Shown one piece after another: positions 13,630 through 29,783 of a DNA stretch of 64,000 nucleotides. Numbering within the stretch: position 1 is the stretch's first letter; each line of letters opens with the position of its first letter. The notes below the pieces were generated by a model, which saw nothing but the letters and a program-made list of their open reading frames with translations, was not told the DNA's origin and searched no databases. The translations under genes were made by a program, and so were the position numbers. Source of the stretch: an uncultured cyanobacterium (lineage in GTDB: Bacteria; Cyanobacteriota; Cyanobacteriia; Cyanobacteriales; CAWUOF01); the NCBI GenBank assembly GCA_963744145.1, contig CAVUSO010000001.1:3456001-3520000 (forward strand), given 5' to 3'.

Positions 13630-15102
13630 CAATACGGTTCGGTTAAGCTAAAAATCAGGTAAAATGAAAGTGTCACCTAAATGGAATGAGTAGGAATGCA
13701 GCTCAAAGAATTCACTGTAATATCACCTGTGGTCGAATCAGGGATGATCCTCAAAGCGTTAGAAACAGCGATTCCATCGACAGCAATTGAAAAAGCCATT
13801 GAAGATACCAATAGAAAAGAGGAACGACAAAGAGCATTACCAACGCATCTGGTTATCTGTCTAATCATTGGGATGAGTCTATGGTCTAGGGGGTCAATGA
13901 GGACAGTGTTGAAAAATCTGGTTGATGGCTTAAATGAAGCATGGGTCAGAGTTAGTTATTATTGGCGAATACCATGTAAATCATCAATTACAGAAGCTAG
14001 ACAGCGAGTAGGTGCAGGGGTAATGCGGCATCTGTTTCACATAGTAGTTAGACCACAGGCTACTAGGGAAACCCCAGGGGCTTTTTTAGGTGAAAAGCGA
14101 ATTATGGCTGTAGATGGAACAGTGTTTGATGTGCCAGATAGCGACACAAATGCCAGAGTATTTGGATATCCAGCTAGTCGTCCTGGAACTAGAGCCGCGT
14201 TTCCCAAGGTGCGTTTGGTTCTATTGATTGAAGCAGGAACACATTTAATTGTAGATGCCTTGATCTGCCCTTACCGAATCGGTGAGCGAGTCAGAGTGAA
14301 AAGGTTACTACGGTCAGTCACCACTGGAATGTTATTAATGTGGGATCGTGGATTGCATTCTTATGCAATGGTGCAAGCCACCTTGTCCCAAAAATGTGAT
14401 TATTTGGGACGCATCCCCAAAAATGTTAAATTTCCTGTGGAGCAGGTATTGGATGATGGTTCCTATCTCTCCTGGATTGCTCCCGACGGCAAGTCGAAAA
14501 AACAGGGCATGACCAAAATTATGGTTCGAGTCATTGAATACACTATTGATAATGGCGAAGCACAAACTTACCGTCTGATTACCAGTTTGACGGACATCGC
14601 TTTATTTCCAGCTTTATTATTAGCCACAGAATATCATCGTCGTTGGGAAGTTGAAAATACTATCGATGAATTGAAGGTTCATCAATTGGGACGTAAAACT
14701 CTGATTCGTTCTCTTCATCCCCGTGAAGTGGTTCAGGAAATTTATGGTTGGCTCCTCGGACATTGGGCGGTTCGTTCTCTCATGTTGACCGACGGCCACC
14801 TCTGCTCACATCTCCCCTTTACGATTGAGTTTTACTGGTACTCTCAATGTTGTCCGTCGTGCTATTCCCAAATTTCAGCGCCTTCAACCAGAAGAATTTC
14901 CCCTTTTTTTTAGTTGGTTGATCAGGGAAATTTTGGATGAACCAATTCCCAAACGTGAAGGTAGAAGTAACCCTCGTGTTATTAAAAAAACTCGCGCCAA
15001 ATTTCCATCCAAGAAACCAATTCATAGAGGTCAGGGAGTTAAACATGAAACCCTCAATTTTTCTATCCTCAATACTGCTTAAAGCTTAACCGAACCGTAT
15101 TG
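13630..15102 (+). mobile_element. IS4-family insertion sequence, 1473 bp
   Basis: Perfect 20-bp TIRs CAATACGGTTCGGTTAAGCT (13630-13649; 15083-15102) and 10-bp TSD CATGTGGTGT (13620-13629; 15103-15112). Confidence 0.95.
13696..15082 (+). pseudogene. IS4-family DDE transposase, frameshifted near 14790
   Basis: AVDGT, WDRG, Y..RWEVENTIDELK (YREK) motifs; the C-terminus (ISPLRLSFTGTLNVVRRA...NPRVIK) continues in another frame to 15082. Confidence 0.88.
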
Positions 15103-19328: not shown

Positions 19329-19475
19329 CTAAGAAGTCCATCCAACCGAGCAGACAACCCGAAAGCCGATGACGATGACGAGGTTGCTGTCATCCGGCCA
19401 ATAATAGAAGCGATACGCAGAACGACAATCCTGCGGGTTATTGCCCCACGACCCACCGCGCCCCAGTCGCCTGTA
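19329..19475 (-). other. Candidate DGR variable region plus IMH-like tail
   Basis: GC-rich 3' end of an AT-rich gene; codons GGC AAT AAC...TTC TAT TAT...GAC AGC AAC CTC GTC ATC GTC keep C/T at position 3, as expected from mutated AAC/AAT codons. Confidence 0.65.
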
Positions 19476-21041
19476 AGAATTATTCTCATTATCATTTTGC
19501 TCTTCATTGATCCGGGCACTTCCATCATTAGGTGCCCCTTCATAATTATAGTGCCAATGGTCTAGACACAATTCCCAGACGTTCCCGTGCATATCATATA
19601 AGCCAAATCTATTTGCTGCCTTAAAACTTCCTACTGAGCTTGTTTCTTTTCGATAAATCCCTGTTGAACCAAAACCATAGATATAATTACCATCATAGTT
19701 AGCTAAATCTGTCGTGATTGTTTCCCCAAAATGAAATGGTGTAGTCGTTCCCGCTCGACAAGCATATTCCCATTCTGCTTCACTTGGTAATCTATATTCT
19801 CTTCCTGTCTTCCTTGACAACCGATCGCAAAATTCTACTGCTTCATTCCAGGTAACCCTTTCTACTGGGCGATCGCTTCCTTTAAATCTAGATGGATCTA
19901 ACTTAAGCTCTCGATTAACTTGAGGTAAACTTGCTATCTCCTTCCACTGTGCTTGGGTTATAGGATATTTACCCATAAAAAATGGTTTAACTGATACTTC
20001 ATGTAAAGGACTTTCATTGTATTCATGTCCTTCTTCATCTTCTGGTGAACCCATCATAAAGACACCTTCAGGAATATAAACCATTTCTAGATGAACATTA
20101 TTTCCTAAGTCTTCCCTATAACCTCTAGCTTGGTCTAAATAACGTTCAATTTTATAGGATTCACTAGATGGATCAAATTTTATTTCTGCAACTTCAAATT
20201 CAAAAGATTGTAGGTCAATAGTTGAATCTATACCCTGACTTTCAACACCAACAGCTACTTCTTCTTGAAAAGTTTGGGAAGTCTGAATACCTTCATCCTC
20301 AAAAATAGTACCCGGAAATTCTCTCAAATTCTCTGGCAAAACTTCATCTGATAATTTTAGTTCTAGATTACCTACCGGATAGGAGCGGGTTAAATCACTC
20401 GGATCTACTTCTTCTGATCTTTTCAATAATCTTTGCACCAATTGAGCAAATTCTAATAAACTAGGTTCCCCTTGCAATTGAGGTGATAAATCTTTAGTAA
20501 TTTGTGCTAACCGTTCAAATTCTACCCTAATTTCTGATTCCGTCAGTTGAGCATTAGCTTCTAGGAAACGTCTTGCTATTTCTTCAGCAACTTGGTTACA
20601 GTAATCATCCCCTAAAAATACCATTGCTGCCCAACGTTGTACTTCTAATTCTTTTTCCCTTCTCCCTGGATTAATCCTACTCAAATAATTAACATAGCTA
20701 ATTAAATCCTGGGCAACTTCTCTCATGCGTTTTGGGCCATAATGTTCCTTCATTTCTTGAATCAGATAGGATCTGATATGAGTGTCCATTGCATATAATT
20801 CATAACCTACTTGACTACATAATTCTGATAGCAATAAATCTACTTCTGCTACCCAAGGAACATTGTCACTTTTTAAAAATTGATTACGCAAATAGTTAAC
20901 TAATTCCGGTGTCAATACTAAAGGTAGTGCTGCATGATATGCTAACAATAGATAGGAGGGCTGAAAACGTCCTACAAATCGGTTAACTGTTGCAACTGCG
21001 GTTTCTTGCTCCCATTCTGCTAAATCTATTTCTTGTGTCAT
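19329..21041 (-). CDS. FGE-sulfatase (SUMF1 / C-type-lectin fold) protein with N-terminal domain typical of MoxR-vWA system partners; probable DGR target
   Basis: FMMGSPE, KYPITQAQW, RLPSEAEWEYACRAGT, FGLYDMHGNVWE, RGGSW..GFRVV; N-terminal LAYHAALPLVLTPELVNYLR...EVDLLLS.LC..VGYELY.MD..IR. Confidence 0.9.
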   Translation of the reverse strand: MTQEIDLAEWEQETAVATVNRFVGRFQPSYLLLAYHAALPLVLTPELVNYLRNQFLKSDNVPWVAEVDLLLSELCSQVGYELYAMDTHIRSYLIQEMKEHYGPKRMREVAQDLISYVNYLSRINPGRREKELEVQRWAAMVFLGDDYCNQVAEEIARRFLEANAQLTESEIRVEFERLAQITKDLSPQLQGEPSLLEFAQLVQRLLKRSEEVDPSDLTRSYPVGNLELKLSDEVLPENLREFPGTIFEDEGIQTSQTFQEEVAVGVESQGIDSTIDLQSFEFEVAEIKFDPSSESYKIERYLDQARGYREDLGNNVHLEMVYIPEGVFMMGSPEDEEGHEYNESPLHEVSVKPFFMGKYPITQAQWKEIASLPQVNRELKLDPSRFKGSDRPVERVTWNEAVEFCDRLSRKTGREYRLPSEAEWEYACRAGTTTPFHFGETITTDLANYDGNYIYGFGSTGIYRKETSSVGSFKAANRFGLYDMHGNVWELCLDHWHYNYEGAPNDGSARINEEQNDNENNSYRRLGRGGSWGNNPQDCRSAYRFYYWPDDSNLVIVIGFRVVCSVGWTS

Positions 21042-21700: not shown

Positions 21701-21907
21701 AGTTGAGAAAGTTTTGATAGTGTTTTTTTGAGTAAGAGTTGTAACCTTTTTGAGTTAGCTCTTTTTCTTCATGTTTACAGAATAGCTATTTAAAACTTGT
21801 TCTAATAGTCTCTAAAGTAATGAGTTAACAGATGATAAAAGTTATAGTTATATCAATTTCATTTATTCTAGCTACAGTTCAATCCCCCCTAACCCCCCTT
21901 AAAAAGG

Positions 21908-23335
21908 CTACGGTGTACACACAACCATACCTAGAGCGAGTTTCCAGCCATCAAAAAAGGATTGAAATTGGCTTAGTCCGCGCACTAAAGTAGTAATTCC
22001 TGGCGGTTTTTGAGACCGATAGCCAGACCAACCACCCAGTCGAGCAATAATCCAAGTTGCCCAAGGTAAAGAATGAGGTGGATAAGGATTTTGTTGTGCT
22101 AAAGTTGGTCCGGAAACAGTGGGAGCAATCTGGGATAAACATTGCTGTTGTTCATCATTGAATGCGTAGGTTGCAGGTAATTCAGGCTGGTCACGCCCGA
22201 CAATTAACTGCAAAATTCTGACAGCTACCGATAAAGCTAAAACACACAATTTTTGAATAGATTTAATTGACTCTAATTGAGTTGCTTCGAGATCTAAGCC
22301 AACGGATTTGAGGGTAGCAAACAGTTGTTCAATCCGCCAGCGCCATTTGTACCATTCAATTACTTGTAATGCTTGTTCAATACAAACTACTCTATGTGTA
22401 GTGAGTAATCGCCAGTGAATCGGTTGTTGACCTTTTGGTGGATTGACTTCTACAGCTTCCACTGCGTAAAGATTGACACTTTCTGGATAATCTGCGGCAG
22501 ATAAATGCTCAGGACGCTGAATTTGAACGAGGGCACAACGTACTAACATGAATGCTTCTCTCGCTGTTCGTCCAACCCGTGAGTCAGCCTGGACTTCAAT
22601 GGCATAAGTTCCTTCACAATGTTGCTGACTTAAATAGGTATACAGAGACTCAGACTGCTCTTTGAGCCGACGGTTCTGTCCGACTCTAATTAAGAGATGA
22701 TGCTGTTGATTAGGTACTCTGACAAATTCTTCAAATATATCGCTTTCCCGATCGCCTATATGAGTCACCATTTTCACATTAGACCAGCTGAAACAGGTGC
22801 GGGTTTGAGCGGCTGACTTGAGCCATTTATAGGATTCTTTTTCTTCAATCGGTAAGTTTTTATATTTTCTTTCATGCTGATCCTGATGGTCAGGTTCTCT
22901 TGTCCACAATTGCACTGTACTTAATCCAAGTGGGAATCCATTTTCTGCATCTAATACCAGTGTGGGATGAATATAAAATCCGATATCTTGATTGTTTCCT
23001 ACTACTCCAATTCCCTCGGATTTCAATCTCCCTTTGTGAGACTCTAAGTTAATTTCACTACTATCACTTATCGCTAAGACGTGGTGTTTTCCATCTACCT
23101 GTAAGGCGCAATGCTCTCCTAAACTTACGACTAATTCTCCAGTTTTTACATTCTCATTCCCTAAAAATCGGTAATATCCAACTTGCTCGGCTCGATTTTT
23201 ACTGATTTTCCGAATATTTACTGATTGATGTTGTGCCATTGCTGCATACAATGAAGCCCCTCTTTTTCCCAGTCTTGGATCTCCGAATGCTGTTCTCTCA
23301 CATTGTTGCACATGAATTAAAATTGGATTTTCCAC
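21908..23335 (-). CDS. IS50/Tn5-like DDE transposase, apparently intact
   Basis: FGDPRL, EEKESYKWL, GDRESDIFE, WRLLTT, Y..RW.IEQLF..LK, IARLGGW...PG motifs. Confidence 0.93.
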   Translation of the reverse strand: MENPILIHVQQCERTAFGDPRLGKRGASLYAAMAQHQSVNIRKISKNRAEQVGYYRFLGNENVKTGELVVSLGEHCALQVDGKHHVLAISDSSEINLESHKGRLKSEGIGVVGNNQDIGFYIHPTLVLDAENGFPLGLSTVQLWTREPDHQDQHERKYKNLPIEEKESYKWLKSAAQTRTCFSWSNVKMVTHIGDRESDIFEEFVRVPNQQHHLLIRVGQNRRLKEQSESLYTYLSQQHCEGTYAIEVQADSRVGRTAREAFMLVRCALVQIQRPEHLSAADYPESVNLYAVEAVEVNPPKGQQPIHWRLLTTHRVVCIEQALQVIEWYKWRWRIEQLFATLKSVGLDLEATQLESIKSIQKLCVLALSVAVRILQLIVGRDQPELPATYAFNDEQQQCLSQIAPTVSGPTLAQQNPYPPHSLPWATWIIARLGGWSGYRSQKPPGITTLVRGLSQFQSFFDGWKLALGMVVCTP

Positions 23336-23397
23336 TACTTTTTTCTCCTTACTTCCCTTCTCTCCTTACTCTATCTCAACTTGTGTGTACACCGTAG
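21908..23397 (-). mobile_element. IS4-family (IS50/Tn5-like) insertion sequence, 1490 bp
   Basis: 17-bp TIRs CTACGGTGTACACACAA (21908-21924; 23381-23397) and 10-bp TSD CTTAAAAAGG (21898-21907; 23398-23407). An 18-bp TIR with 8-bp TSD is an equivalent reading. Confidence 0.93.
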
Positions 23398-23695
23398 CTT
23401 AAAAAGGGGGGAACCGGATTAATATTTCTTAAAGTCCCCCTTTTTAAGGGGGATTTAGGGGGATTCTGGATCTGTAGCAGTGCTTGGTGAGTCTGGTATT
23501 ATTTATCTCAATCTCTGTGATTAAATCTAGAGCATGATTGAATTCCAACAAAAAACCCCACCATTATGGTGAGGTATTTAATCAGGGTGCATGAGATTGA
23601 GTTAAAAAACCTAAGAGAAAAAGAGTTACTGCAAGTTGATTCTAGCCGTCTAATTGATGTTCGCGCATAATATTGTGATGTGCTTGTGAATAATA

Positions 23696-24412: not shown

Positions 24413-24832
24413 ATGTCTGACAACGATCAAAACTCCATTGGGTTAGCTGAATTCATTCAACAGGTTAAACAGGATCTTCTAACCGTAGCACCTGGTAAAG
24501 ATAAGGATGTTCCCATTTTGTTTGTTGAGTCTGTAGAATTAGAGTTACAAGTTACAGCGAAACGGACTGGTAAAGTGGGTACTAAGGGAAGTGTCAAGAT
24601 TAATGTCTTAGGAACTGGAGGTGAGTTTGGTGGTGAAGTTGGTGGTGATATCAGTAATGATCGAGTTCATAAGGTAACCGTGAAATTATCTCCCCTATTC
24701 GATCAATCTCGTTTACAAGAATTTTATGAGACCTTACATTCTGATCAGATTCCTACAGCTATTCGGAATAGTTTAACTGCATTATTCAAAGGTAATGAAG
24801 AAGGGAACTTAATCGAAGAACTGGGTGAGTAA
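24413..24832 (+). CDS. Trypco2-like (trypsin co-occurring) domain protein
   Basis: IGLAEFIQQVKQDL...LFVESVELELQVT...G.VKINVLG.G.E.GG...HKVTVKLSP pattern. Confidence 0.75.
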   Translation: MSDNDQNSIGLAEFIQQVKQDLLTVAPGKDKDVPILFVESVELELQVTAKRTGKVGTKGSVKINVLGTGGEFGGEVGGDISNDRVHKVTVKLSPLFDQSRLQEFYETLHSDQIPTAIRNSLTALFKGNEEGNLIEELGE

Positions 24833-24855
24833 TTTTCTAGCAAAAGAGGTAATCA

Positions 24856-26313
24856 ATGGAAACCTTGAAATTAATGTTCTATCCCATAGAAAATAGTCAA
24901 GACCGTTTTAAAGTAATTGCGGAAGGAGCAGCTCATCAAGAACCATTGTTACCTTTTCCAGAAAATGAGATCAATCCCCGCTCCACTCTAGTCAGAATCT
25001 TAGACTCAATCAAGTTTAATCGCAACAATTTTTCGGAAGCAGAAATAGCTTGGATGGTGAGGGAAAAACTCAGCAATAATGATGCTTTTCTCCCAGACTA
25101 TTTACAGCAAATTGGGAGTAAACTTTATGCAACATTAGGTCAAAATATCCAGCAAATAGTGGAAACTAAAATAGCTGTGACTAAACGCGATCGCAATTGG
25201 TTACATATTCAGTTAGAATTTCCAGTAGATGATCATAAATATGTCCATTTAACTGATTATCCTTGGGAATTATTCTGTAATAATTATGGATTTCTCGCTC
25301 ATCAAGGTGTAGCTTTTTCCCGTTATCTTGCTTATCCTCGTCTTTGTCCAAATTTACCTAGTCATGATCGTGTTGAGGTTTTATTGATTTCTGCTAAAGT
25401 TGGTGATCAAAGGATGGGATTTCCACCCTTATCTAGTTCAGAACAAGAAGCGATCGCATTAGGATTACAAAATGCTCAAGAATCAATTCAATTGAAAACT
25501 TTAGCTAATCCAACTTTTCTAGCACTACGTCAGCATTTATTAGCAAATCCACTTCCCCAAGTTTTGCACTTTGATTGTCATGGTTTTTTTGGAAAACGCT
25601 GTCATCAACAGGAATGTAGAACAGCTCACAAACAAAAGGCAAATCAGTGTGAAAAATGTGGTACTCTTTTAGGAGAACCTCAAGGTTATTTGTTACTAGA
25701 GAATAGTCATGGAGCTGCTGATTATATAAGTGCTAAGGAAATCGGAGAGTTAGTAGGTAATCAACCCATTGGATTAGTAGTGTTAAGTAGTTGTCGTAGT
25801 GGAATGTCCCGATTGAGTGAGTCGGTCTTTAATGGAGTAGCACAAAATTTAATTGGTCAAGGGATTCCCGCAGTAGTAGCAATGACATATACTATTGAAG
25901 TATCTGCTGCTCAAGCTTTTGTGGAGACTTTTTATCGATCACTAGGAAAAAAAGATCCACTTGCGATCGCTTTACGTCATGGACAAAGTGCAATGGGGAT
26001 TGAAGGAAATCAGTGGTATCGTCCGATTTTATATCTGAGATGGGAGGATAATCAAGGGGGACAGTTATTTAATTTACCTATAGCTGAACCAGTTAGAGAT
26101 AGAATTGCATCCGATCGGAGTAAATTATCAAATATGAATCAATCAGCAAGTCGAAAACTTGATCTTGAAGAAGAACTGACAGATTTGTTAGAAGAAAAAG
26201 AAGCTTGTAAAAATCAAATTCGTTCCACTATAGATGATGCTCAAAAGACAGTATTGAAAAGGAAACTGGACAAATTAAATCGACAAATAGCTGAACTAGA
26301 AAGCCAATTATAA
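24856..26313 (+). CDS. CHAT (caspase-like) protease with Zn-ribbon insert and C-terminal effector-associated (EAD9-like) coiled coil
   Basis: YPWELF, VLHFDCHG (catalytic His), VVLSSCRS (catalytic Cys), GIPAVVAM, FYRSL, WYRPILY. Confidence 0.88.
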   Translation: METLKLMFYPIENSQDRFKVIAEGAAHQEPLLPFPENEINPRSTLVRILDSIKFNRNNFSEAEIAWMVREKLSNNDAFLPDYLQQIGSKLYATLGQNIQQIVETKIAVTKRDRNWLHIQLEFPVDDHKYVHLTDYPWELFCNNYGFLAHQGVAFSRYLAYPRLCPNLPSHDRVEVLLISAKVGDQRMGFPPLSSSEQEAIALGLQNAQESIQLKTLANPTFLALRQHLLANPLPQVLHFDCHGFFGKRCHQQECRTAHKQKANQCEKCGTLLGEPQGYLLLENSHGAADYISAKEIGELVGNQPIGLVVLSSCRSGMSRLSESVFNGVAQNLIGQGIPAVVAMTYTIEVSAAQAFVETFYRSLGKKDPLAIALRHGQSAMGIEGNQWYRPILYLRWEDNQGGQLFNLPIAEPVRDRIASDRSKLSNMNQSASRKLDLEEELTDLLEEKEACKNQIRSTIDDAQKTVLKRKLDKLNRQIAELESQL

Positions 26314-26339
26314 TTTTTAACCTGGGAAATTTGAGAGAT

Positions 26340-27344
26340 ATGGTAATTAACACTAACAATAAATACCTAGAATTAACATTGACAGATTTATTAGAGGAGG
26401 AAACTCAACTTTTAGCAAAAAAAGACACTTGTAAAAATCAAATTCGTGGCACTATTGATGATGCTCAGAAAATGGTTTTATCAAGAAATCTAGATAATTT
26501 GAATAAACAAATAGGAGAAATCCAAAAGCAAATAGAGGAAGTAAATAGTCAGCTTCACAAAAATGATATTAGCGGGGATGTTAATCGTCGTTTTCTTGCT
26601 TTAGAAGAAAAATTACCTAAAATTGACTTTAAAGAACCACTAAAGATAGTGCAAAATATTTTGAAGGACTTCGATGAATATGGAGCAGCTTTTTTTCTGG
26701 TTAATGATAGCTTAAGTATGGCTGGAGATTTATTTATTTTAGAGCTTAAAGATTTACTCAAACGTGAAACCACCGATTTAAAACATTATGAAATAGAATT
26801 TTCAGTAAGCGATCGGTTAGATGAGATTGGATTCTTGCAAGGAATAGCTAATTATTTAGGAATGGGACAAATAGAAACTCAAGCAAATGATGTCAATGTG
26901 ATTGACAAGATTATTGATTCTTTAGAAAATGGTACTATAGTTTTTGTGGAAACTAGAAAAGTTGATTTAATTAATGATAAAGGAGGGTTTTTATCTTGGC
27001 TCATTGAGGTTTTTTGGAAAAAAGTAGTTGAACAAATACCTTTAGTTTGTAAAGCAAAAGATATTGAACAAGTCAGATTTATTAATATTATCTTATCAGA
27101 TTGTGACCTAGAAGAAGAATGTTCAATCTTACCTTTTTTCTGTGAGGAAAATGACTTTGATATGTGTAAAGCTGTAAAAATTACTCTTCCAGACTGGAGC
27201 GAGCAAGAAATTAAAACTTGGTTAATCAAACATTCAGGATTATCTAAAGATAAAATCGAGCCAATGAGTAAGAGTATTTATAAATCAAGTCGTGGAGGTA
27301 TTCCTAAATTGATTTGTGAAGCTCTAAAAAATAAATTAAAGTAG
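26340..27344 (+). CDS. Inactive STAND (iSTAND)-like protein with N-terminal EAD9-like adaptor
   Basis: N-terminus repeats the CHAT tail; then LPKIDF, FW..., LPDWSEQEIKTWL, S.GGIP.LI with no Walker A; lies upstream of MoxR. ATG at 26340 (TTG at 26331 possible). Confidence 0.7.
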   Translation: MVINTNNKYLELTLTDLLEEETQLLAKKDTCKNQIRGTIDDAQKMVLSRNLDNLNKQIGEIQKQIEEVNSQLHKNDISGDVNRRFLALEEKLPKIDFKEPLKIVQNILKDFDEYGAAFFLVNDSLSMAGDLFILELKDLLKRETTDLKHYEIEFSVSDRLDEIGFLQGIANYLGMGQIETQANDVNVIDKIIDSLENGTIVFVETRKVDLINDKGGFLSWLIEVFWKKVVEQIPLVCKAKDIEQVRFINIILSDCDLEEECSILPFFCEENDFDMCKAVKITLPDWSEQEIKTWLIKHSGLSKDKIEPMSKSIYKSSRGGIPKLICEALKNKLK

Positions 27345-27415
27345 TTTTTTTGAGAATATATGAATATCAGATTTATATAATTACTTGAGAAAGTGATAAC
27401 TTACCTGATATAATC

Positions 27416-27705
27416 CAATCCAGTTCAGTTAACCGTAGGGGCAAAGCATTTCGGCGAATAAATCATTACTGAAGCGAAGGATAATATTACCGAAATGCTT
27501 TGCCCTCAATCTATGCAGCCAACCGATCAACTATATATTAAAATACATTCAGTTACCATCATTTTTTGGGAGAACTCGGCGCAGAAAAAAGAAGGGCGAA
27601 GCATTCGGATATAATATTGCTGCCCTTCGGCTACGCTCAGGGTAAACTTTGATTGCTAAATTGTCGCCCGAATGCTTCGCCCCTACATTTAACTGAACTG
27701 TATTG
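27416..27705. mobile_element. MITE (290 bp) with IS4-like ends carrying two REP-like hairpin pairs
   Basis: Ends CAATCCAGTTCAGTTAA / TTAACTGAACTGTATTG; flanks TGATATAATC / TGATATGAGC (8/10); internal GGGCAAAGCATTTCGG...CCGAAATGCTTTGCCC and GGGCGAAGCATTCGG...CCGAATGCTTCGCCC. Confidence 0.7.
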
Positions 27706-27744
27706 TGATATGAGCTATTCAAGATTACTAGAGGAAAATCATTT

Positions 27745-28722
27745 ATGTCCACTCCGGAAAGATTAGAATTTACGGGAAATCTAGAAAAACGACCCAAAGA
27801 ACCACATCGGGATTCTCCTAGTACACCAGAACCCTATATAGTTGATCCAGAACTTCAGAAAGCTGTAAATTTAGCTATCTATCTCCGTAGACCTTTACTA
27901 TTAGAAGGAGATCCAGGATGTGGTAAAACTCGTCTTGCTTCAGCAGTTGCTTATGAATTGGGACTTCCTCTCTATCGGTGGGATGTGCGATCGACTACTA
28001 AAGCTCAAGATGGACTTTATGAATATGATGCAATTCTCCGTTTACATGATGTTCAAATTCAGAAAATACCATCTGTTGATAAAATAGAAATTGAAGAAGA
28101 TGGTGAAATAGTTAATCGCAATCCCGCTAATCCTAAACATTATCGTCGATTCGGACCGTTAGGAAAAGCTTTTCGACTCCAGGATTGTCCAGGGATTGTT
28201 TTAATTGATGAAATTGATAAAGCTGATTTAGATTTCCCTAATGATTTGTTAACCGTTTTAGATGCTCCTTGGGAATTCAAAATTAAAGAAACAGGAGAAT
28301 TAATTAAAGCTACTACTACTCCAATTGATTGTAGACCGATTGTTTTTATTACCAGTAATAAGGAAAAAGGGAATTTGCCGATCGCCTTTCTCCGACGTTG
28401 TTTATATTATTATGTAGAATTTCCCAATGATTTGGAAAAGTTACAGGAAATAGTTGAAAAACATTATGAAATTGCTGAAATATCACCTCCACCAAATAAT
28501 TTAGTTGTTACTGCGATTAACCGCTTTTTAAATATCTGGAATGAAGGTGGACTATTTAAAAGACCTGGAACCAGTGAATTTCTGGATTGGTTAAAAGCAC
28601 TCCATACCTTTGAACCAAATCCTTATGATGCAGAACAATTAATAGCAGAACAATTACTTCCCTATCGAGAATTATTATTTAAGATCCAAGCAGATTGGAA
28701 AAAATATGCCAAGGTTTTATGA
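27745..28722 (+). CDS. MoxR family AAA+ ATPase
   Basis: RPLLLEGDPGCGKT (Walker A), GLYEYDAI.RL.D, VLIDEIDKAD.DFPNDLL (Walker B), AFLRRC, KRPGTSEFLDW. Confidence 0.93.
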   Translation: MSTPERLEFTGNLEKRPKEPHRDSPSTPEPYIVDPELQKAVNLAIYLRRPLLLEGDPGCGKTRLASAVAYELGLPLYRWDVRSTTKAQDGLYEYDAILRLHDVQIQKIPSVDKIEIEEDGEIVNRNPANPKHYRRFGPLGKAFRLQDCPGIVLIDEIDKADLDFPNDLLTVLDAPWEFKIKETGELIKATTTPIDCRPIVFITSNKEKGNLPIAFLRRCLYYYVEFPNDLEKLQEIVEKHYEIAEISPPPNNLVVTAINRFLNIWNEGGLFKRPGTSEFLDWLKALHTFEPNPYDAEQLIAEQLLPYRELLFKIQADWKKYAKVL

Positions 28723-29783
28723 ATTCCTTTAACTCCTACGAATTAATTACTCAAACTTTTGTGAATTTGCGCCAAAGTGGATTTAAACTAGGTGTAGAGG
28801 AACTTTTAGCAGCAAGAGCAGCAATTAAAGGAGGATTTGGTGATACTCCAGAAACATTAGCAGAAACATTAAAAATTTTATGGTGTCATTCTCTAGCAGA
28901 CCAAAGTCGGTTTGATCCGATTTTCAAATCTTTATCCGATCGCATAACTAAACCATCTGAAGAATCTTCATTACCAGAATCTCCCATTTCCTCTGATCGA
29001 GAGATAGTACCTGAACACCAAGAAGTATTATATCCCAAACCTTGGCAAGAAACGGTAACAGAAATACAACCCCAACCAGCATTAGCATCTTTAGCAGTTC
29101 GAGCACCTTCAATCCAGAAAGCAGATCAAGAAAAATTTCCCTTTGAAACCTATTATCCCATTACTCGCCGGAAAATGGCTTATCAATGGCGATATCTACG
29201 ATGTCCTATTGCTAATGGACTGCTAGATCTATTAGATATCGATGGGACAATAGAGCAAACTGCTCACCAGGGATTTTACTTAGCTCCTAATTATCAGAGA
29301 CGGGAACAAAACCATGTCCATTTATTAATGTTAGTAGATCAAAATGGTTCGATGACTCCTTTTCACCGCTTCAGTCGTGATTTAGTGGAAACTGCTAGTA
29401 ATGAAGGAGGTTTAAATCCGGAAAAAGTGGATGTTTTTTATTTTCAAAATATCCTTTCAGCTACTCTTTATCAAGATATTTACCTCACCGAACCAATCAA
29501 ACTTAAAACTGTGTTAAATAGCTGCGATCGGCAAACCAGTATTTTAATCGTTAGTGATGCAGGTGCAGCAAGAGGTTATCGTAAACTAGACCGAATTCGA
29601 GCAACTAATAGCTTTCTATTTCAACTAAAACAACATACAAAACTAATTGCTTGGTTAAATCCGATGCCCAAATCCCGCTGGATGGGCAGTTCAGCAGAAA
29701 TTATTGCTAATCTAGTACCGATGTCAGCAATGGATGAAGATGGTTTAAGTAATGCAATTGATATGATTCGGGGAGTTAAATAA
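28719..29783 (+). CDS. vWA (CoxE-like) domain protein, MoxR partner
   Basis: ATGA overlap with the moxR stop; LMLVDQNGSMTPF (MIDAS), IVSDAGAARG, WLNPMP..RW..S.A. Confidence 0.88.
   Translation: MNSFNSYELITQTFVNLRQSGFKLGVEELLAARAAIKGGFGDTPETLAETLKILWCHSLADQSRFDPIFKSLSDRITKPSEESSLPESPISSDREIVPEHQEVLYPKPWQETVTEIQPQPALASLAVRAPSIQKADQEKFPFETYYPITRRKMAYQWRYLRCPIANGLLDLLDIDGTIEQTAHQGFYLAPNYQRREQNHVHLLMLVDQNGSMTPFHRFSRDLVETASNEGGLNPEKVDVFYFQNILSATLYQDIYLTEPIKLKTVLNSCDRQTSILIVSDAGAARGYRKLDRIRATNSFLFQLKQHTKLIAWLNPMPKSRWMGSSAEIIANLVPMSAMDEDGLSNAIDMIRGVK

Follow-up and report, generated by a model that had tools for sequence, protein, structure and literature searches.

Predicted protease-gated pore toxin as the output of a six-gene iSTAND-type MoxR-vWA conflict system in an uncultured cyanobacterium

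The window analyzed in this study is a stretch of 64,000 nucleotides (nt) from an uncultured cyanobacterium (GenBank assembly GCA_963744145.1, contig CAVUSO010000001.1, positions 3,456,001 to 3,520,000 of the forward strand), in which a first-pass annotation had described a five-gene Trypco2-CHAT-iSTAND-MoxR-vWA ternary conflict operon with a caspase-like effector. Through domain searches, structure prediction and a survey of related loci, we conclude that the locus is probably (at a probability of about 0.6) a six-gene, iSTAND-type MoxR-vWA conflict system of the abortive-infection type, the output of which would be a protease-gated pore toxin. The assignment to the iSTAND-type MoxR-vWA ternary conflict systems holds with all of the domain calls. 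Several elements of the earlier description had to be changed. Among these, the caspase-like CHAT protein, named there as the effector, is more likely a signalling protease, with Trypco2 as the effector; and five genes do not make up the whole system, since the orthologue of a sixth lies displaced at 19329-21041 on the minus strand. In kind, the locus is a further example of systems already described, namely a Pepco-protease module on an iSTAND ternary system. Ternary systems of the iSTAND and VMAP types have been known as predictions since 2020, and this locus joins one of them to the only protease-effector module with an output understood so far, Pepco.

As first annotated, five co-oriented genes were found on the plus strand, and the open reading frames (ORFs) coincide exactly with that annotation. 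They encode Trypco2/Pepco (139 amino acids (aa); 24413-24832), a predicted latent pore-forming executioner; TCAD3-CHAT-EAD9 (485 aa; 24856-26313), a caspase-like (clan CD) cysteine protease with a C-terminal EAD9 adaptor; EAD9-iSTAND (334 aa; 26340-27344), an inactive STAND scaffold with EAD9 at its N terminus; a MoxR-like AAA+ ATPase (325 aa; 27745-28722); and a CoxE-type vWA protein (354 aa; 28719-29783). The spacing was likewise confirmed. Genes 1 and 2 are separated by 23 nt (24833-24855), and genes 2 and 3 by 26 nt if gene 3 starts at the ATG at 26340 (an in-frame TTG at 26331 is a possible alternative start). The gap of 400 nt between genes 3 and 4 (27345-27744) holds an element resembling a miniature inverted-repeat transposable element (MITE), and the stop codon of the MoxR gene overlaps the start of the vWA gene in an ATGA at 28719-28722, through which the two are translationally coupled.

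Trypco2 was identified by Pfam PF19631 at 61.2 bits (cut-off, 24.2), with residues 9-94 covering positions 1-78 of the 78-position profile, and it is encoded by the sole Trypco2 gene of this genome. From the N terminus, the predicted layout is an amphipathic helix and beta-hairpins, then two helices in the C-terminal part, and finally K126-G127 with an acidic tail of 13 aa. In an AlphaFold2 (AF2) model of the monomer, one helix (11-24), three strands (41-52, 60-66 and 82-92) and two further helices (98-108 and 115-125) were predicted at low confidence (predicted local distance difference test, pLDDT, 47); such a value is expected, because the protein would be the protomer of an obligate oligomer. 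The secondary structure of this low-confidence model agrees with the Pepco layout, and the first two strands are amphipathic, with strand-periodicity hydrophobic moments of 0.55 and 0.71. When 80 sequences were compared, the window protein showed 0 deviations at columns conserved at 90% or more. A PDB sequence search with a profile of the Trypco2 family alignment returned nothing meaningful, and prediction of a complex between CHAT (residues 1-425) and Trypco2 gave an interface score (ipSAE) of 0.00 in two runs, which is uninformative either way.

The earlier proposal that Trypco2 is the substrate or executioner of the protease, and that it oligomerises, is supported by experiment on a trypsin-linked homologue, SsPepco of Streptomyces subrutilus (Evans et al., bioRxiv 10.1101/2025.11.14.688446). 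That preprint reports that SsPepco forms 9-10-mer beta-barrels stable in sodium dodecyl sulfate (SDS), that cleavage after I97 by its trypsin-like partner takes off a charged tail of 2 kDa, that toxicity needs this removal, that a form truncated exactly after I97 is lethal to E. coli, and that the N-terminal amphipathic helix is required. By analogy with this homologue, the Pepco of the window is taken to be a protease-armed pore. As with SsPepco and SsAvs4, the small Trypco2-family gene of the window lies directly upstream of the protease gene; its product has a charged tail at the C terminus and is predicted to begin with an amphipathic helix followed by beta-hairpins, and the protease is coupled to a variable sensor. 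There are also differences from the Streptomyces pair. The partner is a CHAT cysteine protease rather than a trypsin-like domain; the window protein is longer (139 aa, compared with 117 aa), with a two-helix insert of about 28 residues after the serine-protease cut position; and a near-invariant K-G replaces the serine-protease cut motif. Unlike SsAvs4, the protease is unfused and would be tethered via EAD9 to the iSTAND-MoxR-vWA components; MoxR goes unmentioned in the text of that preprint (10.1101/2025.11.14.688446).

A search with gene 1 gave 185 homologues, and the source names shown were all cyanobacterial. One genome per species was scanned with the homologue alignment, which yielded 94 confirmed loci; the best 80 were kept, and the pairing counts are based on the 72 of these in which the DNA after the Trypco2 match extends for 600 nt or more. 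At 67 of the 72, a CHAT homologue started 3-400 nt (median, 44) after the Trypco2 match. The exceptions are two loci with deletion remnants of both genes (L028 and L032; L numbers are our designations of related loci) and three without CHAT (L008, L010 and L017). At the remnants (L028:8001-9257 and L032:8001-8383, and also in protein P0096), the 5' portion of Trypco2 continues directly into a piece of CHAT from its 3' side. The position of Trypco2 beside a CHAT protein had been regarded as unusual; these counts show instead that the cyanobacterial subfamily is CHAT-linked. Neither a trypsin domain nor an alpha/beta-hydrolase was found by Pfam in 200 of the 235 downstream ORFs of the related loci (the 35 omitted were distal), and a scan of 22 ORFs of the window (8055-34278) likewise gave no alpha/beta-hydrolase family. 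Because the 80-locus scan had been seeded with the subfamily itself, the Pfam Trypco2 model was also run against 401 genomes of the phylum as a control for circularity. Trypco2 was found in 14 of the 401, the genome of the window included. At the 13 other loci, the next gene encoded CHAT in 6, a trypsin-NB-ARC protein in 5 and no peptidase in 2; in the last two, a short Trypco2 frame (87 aa) was followed by a COP23 gene. Given 6 versus 5 of 13 loci, CHAT-linked and trypsin-linked Trypco2 both occur in cyanobacteria.

The CHAT core (residues ~1-405) was found to be constant among the related loci, and the part that follows it to be variable. At 55-64% identity to the window protein, five C-terminal arrangements in total were observed, comprising FGS (L002), EAD2 (L004), EAD1 leading to VMAP (L006 and L009), EAD9 leading to VMAP (L003) and TIR-EAD9 leading to iSTAND (L007). 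EAD9 or EAD1 is followed by VMAP-type ternary systems at about 20 loci, with a direct CHAT-EAD9-VMAP fusion in L019, and FtsH-type systems with ubiquitin-like parts lie beside the pair in L031, L042 and L050. CHAT is also fused directly to STAND NTPases at 11 loci (NB-ARC at 10 and NACHT/nSTAND3-type at 1), to CHASE2 at 4, and elsewhere to FGS, GUN4, TPR, EAD2 or bDLD3. Because the CHAT core is constant and its C-terminal arrangements and inputs are many, Trypco2 plus CHAT constitutes a portable output module of two genes, which has the iSTAND machine as one among many inputs. In three of the CHASE2 loci (L047, L049 and L051), Trypco2, the CHAT-CHASE2 fusion (857-903 aa) and, directly downstream, DUF928 form a trio; in L040, Trypco2 and CHAT-CHASE2 are present, and the contig ends just after the fusion gene. 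This arrangement suggests a membrane-sensor version of the Trypco2-CHAT module.

The second gene encodes the protease of this module. Its CHAT domain matched PF12770 at 96.4 bits (cut-off, 24; E = 2.6e-27), TCAD3 scored 36.4 bits (5e-9), above the Pfam cut-off, and EAD9 scored 29.3 bits against a cut-off of 25 (7e-7). The catalytic dyad had been described as intact, and H242 and C313 were indeed invariant in 34 of 34 aligned homologues, as were H238, F239, D240 and G243. Between the catalytic His and Cys lies a cluster of four cysteines, of which C249, C254 and C268 are invariant (34/34) and C265 is conserved at 90% or more; judged from these residues, the insert is zinc-ribbon-like. Residues 1-425 were modelled by AF2 with a pLDDT of 80 and a predicted template modelling score (pTM) of 0.80. 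When this model was compared by Foldseek, the nearest structure was SAVED-CHAT (8tl0; E = 1.1e-7), followed by the CHAT anti-sigma factor DdvA, Csx29 of Craspase, separase, gingipain R and caspase-9; the matches had E values of 1e-7 to 1e-5 at 11-15% identity, and there was no sequence similarity outside the CHAT core. Sensor-activated clan-CD proteases that cut a dedicated substrate and so bring about death or arrest are known from bacterial gasdermins and their caspase-like proteases, from Craspase (in which the TPR-CHAT protein Csx29 cuts Csx30) and from SAVED-CHAT, which acts on PCaspase. The CHAT fold is common to the window protein, Craspase Csx29 and SAVED-CHAT; the substrate family and the sensor differ, and the locus has no CRISPR or cyclic-nucleotide input.

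The remaining genes of the operon encode the components of the ternary system. The third protein matched the Pfam iSTAND model at 37.8 bits (cut-off, 24) and, as the first-pass annotation had claimed, lacks a P-loop; no GK[ST] or other Walker A equivalent was present at the P-loop position in any of eight orthologues, including that of the window. Its own EAD9 was sub-threshold (17.3 bits), and its N terminus was 64% identical over 42 aa to the C terminus of the CHAT protein (E = 1e-18); the two EAD9 domains are paralogous. EAD9 scored above the Pfam cut-off at no other locus of the genome. The same EAD is thus carried by a core component and by the peptidase, an arrangement described for iSTAND systems by Kaur et al. 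In the fourth protein, Walker A (GDPGCGKT) and Walker B (VLIDEID) were intact in the translation, as had been stated. It matched AAA_5, AAA_2 and AAA of Pfam, the top match being AAA_5 (34.7 bits, above cut-off), and its best PDB sequence matches were AAA modules of midasin. No MoxR-specific model was above cut-off for this protein (NCBIfam MadB gave 80 bits versus 475), and the label "MoxR" therefore rests on context and synteny. The fifth protein matched VWA_CoxE at 32.6 bits (cut-off, 26.4). Its metal-ion-dependent adhesion site (MIDAS) had also been called intact; it is conserved and free of decay, but it is a variant, D207-Q-N209-G-S211, reading DxNxS rather than the canonical DxSxS. Because residues D207-M212, T273 and D280 are invariant in 8/8 orthologues, we regard DxNxS as a conserved variant and not as decay.

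Conservation of this gene set was borne out by seven other loci with iSTAND, MoxR and vWA genes behind Trypco2. In six of these (L007, L013, L021, L024, L033 and L055), CHAT is intact and the order is the same as in the window, namely Trypco2, CHAT-EAD9, EAD9-iSTAND, MoxR and vWA. In L028, CHAT is deleted and the downstream genes are kept, a TIR-EAD9 protein being the only EAD9-bearing partner of iSTAND. The five genes of the operon are 58-75% identical to those of L007 (Scytonema hyalinum metagenome-assembled genome, contig JAHHIB010000027.1). Unlike the window, L007 has an extra TIR domain on CHAT, a sixth gene that overlaps the vWA stop and an iSTAND-MoxR gap of at most 62 nt; L021 differs from the window in carrying genes of a diversity-generating retroelement (DGR). 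Two more iSTAND systems were noted in the genome of the window (L082, C1:3956657-3960109, and L083, C1:1216434-1219892). One consists of a CHAT-iSTAND fusion (629 aa) followed by a MoxR-like ATPase and the other of a 389-aa iSTAND protein with a MoxR-like ATPase; both have FGS-type genes nearby and are without a Trypco2 gene. The CHAT-iSTAND fusion can be viewed, by analogy, as the covalent equivalent of the proposed EAD9 link; such covalent equivalents serve as an argument for EAD function in Kaur et al. 2020 (PMC7159879).

A sixth gene emerged from the comparison of the related iSTAND loci. In all six of those with DNA beyond the vWA gene, another gene overlapped the vWA stop; in five (L007, L021, L024, L028 and L055) it encodes X-FGS, a protein of 560-665 aa, and in L033 a caspase C14-TPR protein. 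When the genome was searched with the sixth protein of L007, the best match was the window ORF at 19329-21041 (minus strand). This protein (570 aa) consists of an N-terminal domain (residues ~1-300) and a C-terminal FGE-sulfatase (FGS/C-type-lectin-fold) domain, the latter matched by Pfam at residues 318-562 (E = 1e-48). It is collinear with all five X-FGS proteins and 57-64% identical to that of L007 over its full length, similar to the 58-75% of the other five genes (MoxR, 75%); the other FGS paralogues of the genome are only 33-39% identical to the L007 N-terminal domain. By these sequence comparisons, 19329-21041 is the orthologue of the sixth gene. In the window, vWA is abutted instead by a convergent trpD-like gene, and an LTXXQ-family ORF, a terminator-like hairpin (21204-21182) and an IS4-type element lie between X-FGS and Trypco2. 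The short end of the vWA protein (see below) would fit a break at the point where vWA and FGS were once joined. Sequence left over from the 3' end of vWA was not found ahead of the FGS start codon, the rest of the window held no pieces of L007-type genes, and there was no flank synteny with the related loci. With no remnant, fragments or flank synteny from which to reconstruct the rearrangement, a simple inversion scar was dropped as an explanation; inversion mediated by an insertion sequence (IS) was not shown, the IS being on one side only.

Several further observations concern X-FGS and its relatives. The N-terminal domain of about 300 aa (20100-21041 on the minus strand; L007:13617-14534) is well conserved, with many invariant residues, and gave no Pfam match at E ≤ 1 and no Atlas match; it aligns with the middle of giant vWA-FGS proteins of VMAP-type loci. 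Elsewhere in the genome, C1:1798000-1809000 holds a cluster of three or more paralogues with an FGS domain (frames of 605-671 aa), 62-66% identical to the FGS domain of L007. DGR parts (bAvd-like and reverse transcriptase) were found in L021:7794-8877, L018:15408-15746 and L005:11197-12345, where they adjoin an FGS gene or a CHAT-TPR gene. Targeting of the window FGS gene by a DGR was considered and rejected: the best genomic matches of its 3' end were paralogues at 71-76%, the mismatches were not adenine-specific, and no template repeat was found.

In Kaur et al. 2020 (eLife 9:e52696, PMC7159879), the iSTAND ternary systems and EADs were defined and Trypco1/2 were described as trypsin-co-occurring, and caspase-like domains were reported to be "always" accompanied by an alpha/beta-hydrolase. 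The locus shares with those systems, as described there, the P-loop-less STAND, a MoxR-like ATPase without N- or C-terminal extensions, the CoxE-type vWA, the EAD pair between core and peptidase, FGS as the commonest variable domain and a concentration in cyanobacteria. It differs in that Trypco2 occurs with CHAT, with no alpha/beta-hydrolase among the neighbouring ORFs scanned, and in that FGS is on a separate protein rather than at the vWA C terminus and its gene is displaced. The rule of Trypco with trypsin and caspase with alpha/beta-hydrolase thus fails in cyanobacteria. A Trypco2 gene beside a CHAT-TIR protein has been noted by Doré et al. (bioRxiv 10.1101/2023.09.22.558884), who also proposed the lectin-fold/FGS protein as a sensor. 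In the LcCaspase-LcHydrolase pair (10.1101/2025.11.14.688446), as proposed for the window, a caspase-like protease arms a neighbouring latent effector, and the putative cut sites are a conserved basic residue and a Gly after it; that effector is an alpha/beta-hydrolase zymogen cut twice rather than a pore-former.

This analysis established which domains the proteins carry, their catalytic and adaptor motifs, the strict pairing of Trypco2 with CHAT, the modular rewiring of that pair to many sensors and the orthology of the sixth gene. From these observations a scheme can be drawn up in which we infer the direction of signalling, the pairing of the EAD9 domains, the position of the cut and that the system is active in this genome. 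The FGS-domain protein (19329-21041), the candidate sensor, would bind a ligand derived from the invader. With ATP as the energy source, the vWA protein and the MoxR-like AAA+ ATPase would remodel or assemble the iSTAND scaffold, which lacks a P-loop and the N-terminal EAD9 of which may then pair with the near-identical C-terminal EAD9 of CHAT, so that the protease would be concentrated and activated. CHAT would cut Trypco2, most likely at K126/G127, with release of the 13-residue acidic tail, and the pre-assembled Trypco2 beta-barrel would form a membrane pore, by which the infected cell would be killed. Cleavage of Trypco2 and membrane permeabilisation would then offer a read-out for the upstream MoxR-vWA-iSTAND machine. 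More tentatively, and with the odds against it, CHAT-linked Pepcos may constitute a distinct activation class, in which a latch of two inserted helices and caspase-like cleavage at a near-invariant [K/R]-G, with release of a short acidic plug, replace the isoleucine cut that serine proteases make directly behind the last strand of the barrel, the cleavage being licensed by a receptor-gated, ATP-driven MoxR-vWA-iSTAND platform via a private EAD9-EAD9 handshake, with the TCAD3 region as a Pepco-docking domain. If true, this would be a bacterial counterpart, built from unrelated parts, of the pathway from receptor through apoptosome or inflammasome and caspase to pore.

The site of the proposed cut was sought in the Trypco2 alignment. 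K126 was kept in 77 of 80 homologues and G127 in 66 of 80, and the protein ends in a tail of 13 residues, five of them acidic and none basic. The distant CHAT-SIR2-linked loci L109 and L110 retain R-G followed by an acidic run, and the putative cleavage sites of LcCaspase are R-then-G motifs conserved among 161 homologues (10.1101/2025.11.14.688446). Because of this near-invariance, the R-G of L109 and L110, and the LcCaspase precedent, K126/G127 is put forward as the first candidate for the CHAT cut, with a chance somewhat short of even. Trypsin-linked Trypco2 proteins are about 100 aa long and CHAT-linked ones about 118-157 aa, with some 44 residues beyond L95 that the former lack. When the window protein was aligned with trypsin-linked cyanobacterial proteins, P94 was invariant and the isoleucine of their "...KPI" motif, a position identified as P1 in 10.1101/2025.11.14.688446, corresponded to L95 of the window protein. 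The second candidate is L95/F96; the CHAT protease of Craspase cleaves after Leu or Met. The third is the K/R98 position. A cut at K126/G127 versus L95 is a sharp and cheap prediction for cysteine-protease-linked Pepcos.

A number of observations weigh against this reading. With respect to the effector, the serine-protease P1 isoleucine aligns with L95 and not with K126, and the real cut could be at L95 or at position 98; K or R occupies position 98 in 76 of 80 homologues and the window alone has Q, so that, if this were the cut site, the window Trypco2 may be uncleavable. The beta-barrel is predicted from homology, the monomer model being poor (pLDDT 47). The literature searched contained no experiments with iSTAND systems or with Pepcos linked to a cysteine protease, experimental data being available only for the beta-propeller relative (Esr), and the preprint supplements may list such loci. 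With respect to the locus, the iSTAND-MoxR junction measures 400 nt in the window versus at most 62 nt in the orthologous loci. The sixth gene stands apart from the operon in inverted orientation, behind the terminator-like hairpin, and the vWA C terminus is about 10 aa short, ending in GVK where 5 of 7 orthologues have a QPL-type tail. Two CHAT substitutions, G241C (next to the catalytic His) and H141C, are unique to the window, and CHAT ranked joint second of 34 in deviations at conserved columns. Function could be reduced or lost through the MITE gap, the displaced sixth gene, the short vWA and G241C. Taken further, and together with a recently active IS adjoining the operon and the deletion remnants of the module in related genomes (L028 and L032), these features would fit a decaying or silenced copy, in which the frames are open and the system no longer fires, the operon having been interrupted and the sensor gene uncoupled. 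We consider this unlikely, since all six reading frames are intact and of full length compared with the orthologues, and since Trypco2 has no deviations at conserved columns and the counts of CHAT and vWA (second of 8), while high, are not outliers; such counts accordingly lend no support to pseudogenization. Moreover, a promoter-like sequence just upstream of the MITE could drive MoxR-vWA, as far as a consensus match can indicate.

Two other explanations accept an active locus and assign it a different output or purpose. In the flow of signalling that Kaur et al. 2020 put forward for ternary systems (summarised in 10.1101/2023.09.22.558884), the peptidase processes the vWA component; the real substrate of CHAT would then be the vWA or FGS protein, which the cut would release or activate, and Trypco2 would not be a killer but would regulate or chaperone the protease, whether as an inhibitor or as a specificity factor. 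The described recruitment of "signalling components" by EAD9 (PMC7159879) agrees with such a role, and the long, conserved two-helix C-terminal segment of CHAT-linked Trypco2 could bind the protease rather than serve as a disposable tail. The survey argues otherwise. The Trypco2-CHAT pair also occurs with no vWA or MoxR nearby (in the NB-ARC, NACHT/nSTAND3-type, CHASE2, GUN4 and TPR fusions), and the constant partner of CHAT is for this reason Trypco2 and not vWA; in addition, a homologue has been shown to be the toxic output of its protease (10.1101/2025.11.14.688446). This explanation is accordingly about as improbable as decay. Still less probable is that the system serves developmental or stress-induced cell death or differentiation in a filamentous cyanobacterium and not anti-phage defence. 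Such systems are statistically tied to a multicellular habit (77 of 103 organisms for iSTAND; PMC7159879, Table 1), and the CHAT protein has a match to the cell-division protein HetF of NCBIfam, a weak one (E = 2e-5) far below the cut-off. Against this, the distribution is patchy and defence-like, an iSTAND orthologue being present in 3 of the 40 relatives searched and Trypco2 in 14 genomes of the 401 sampled from the phylum; the DGR parts beside the FGS gene in L018 and L021 fit a diversified receptor for foreign ligands; and GC content, about 0.40 in the flanks, drops to 0.30-0.31 over 26000-27500, which covers the iSTAND gene and the 3' end of the CHAT gene. GC skew over that stretch is strongly positive (0.25). 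We thus retain the six-gene conflict system with Trypco2 as its output as the most probable reading.

The sequence context of the operon was also examined. The element between the iSTAND and MoxR genes (27416-27705, about 290 bp, with no strand assigned) has 42-nt inverted repeats at its termini (27416-27457 and 27664-27705) and two perfect hairpins inside. When the gap was compared by BLAST with its own genome, approximately 150-320 matches per position were obtained across 27405-27705, and because of this recurrence the element is classed as a MITE-like dispersed repeat. Ahead of its left end, at 27385-27414, is the best sigma-70-like match of the region (TTGAGA, an 18-nt spacer and TATAAT, with a TG upstream; 11/12), a match to consensus only; promoter-like sites in the region are no more numerous than the shuffled expectation. 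HIP1 octamers (GCGATCGC) in the flanks, together with the source names of the homologues, point to a cyanobacterial host. PADLOC recognised no system here, giving just a weak SAVED_CHAT match and P-loop-only IetA matches, and NCBIfam gave sub-threshold matches only for the window proteins. The IS4-type insertion sequence between the sixth gene and the operon (21906-23398, minus strand) is intervening DNA and no part of the system; its transposase ORF (21908-23335, minus strand) carries Tnp_DNA_bind and DDE_Tnp_1 of Pfam. Four further copies in the genome are 99.6-99.9% identical over about 1.49 kb, in addition to several fragments, and given these near-identical sister copies the element has therefore been recently active. 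A second IS4-type transposase is located at 13696-14913.

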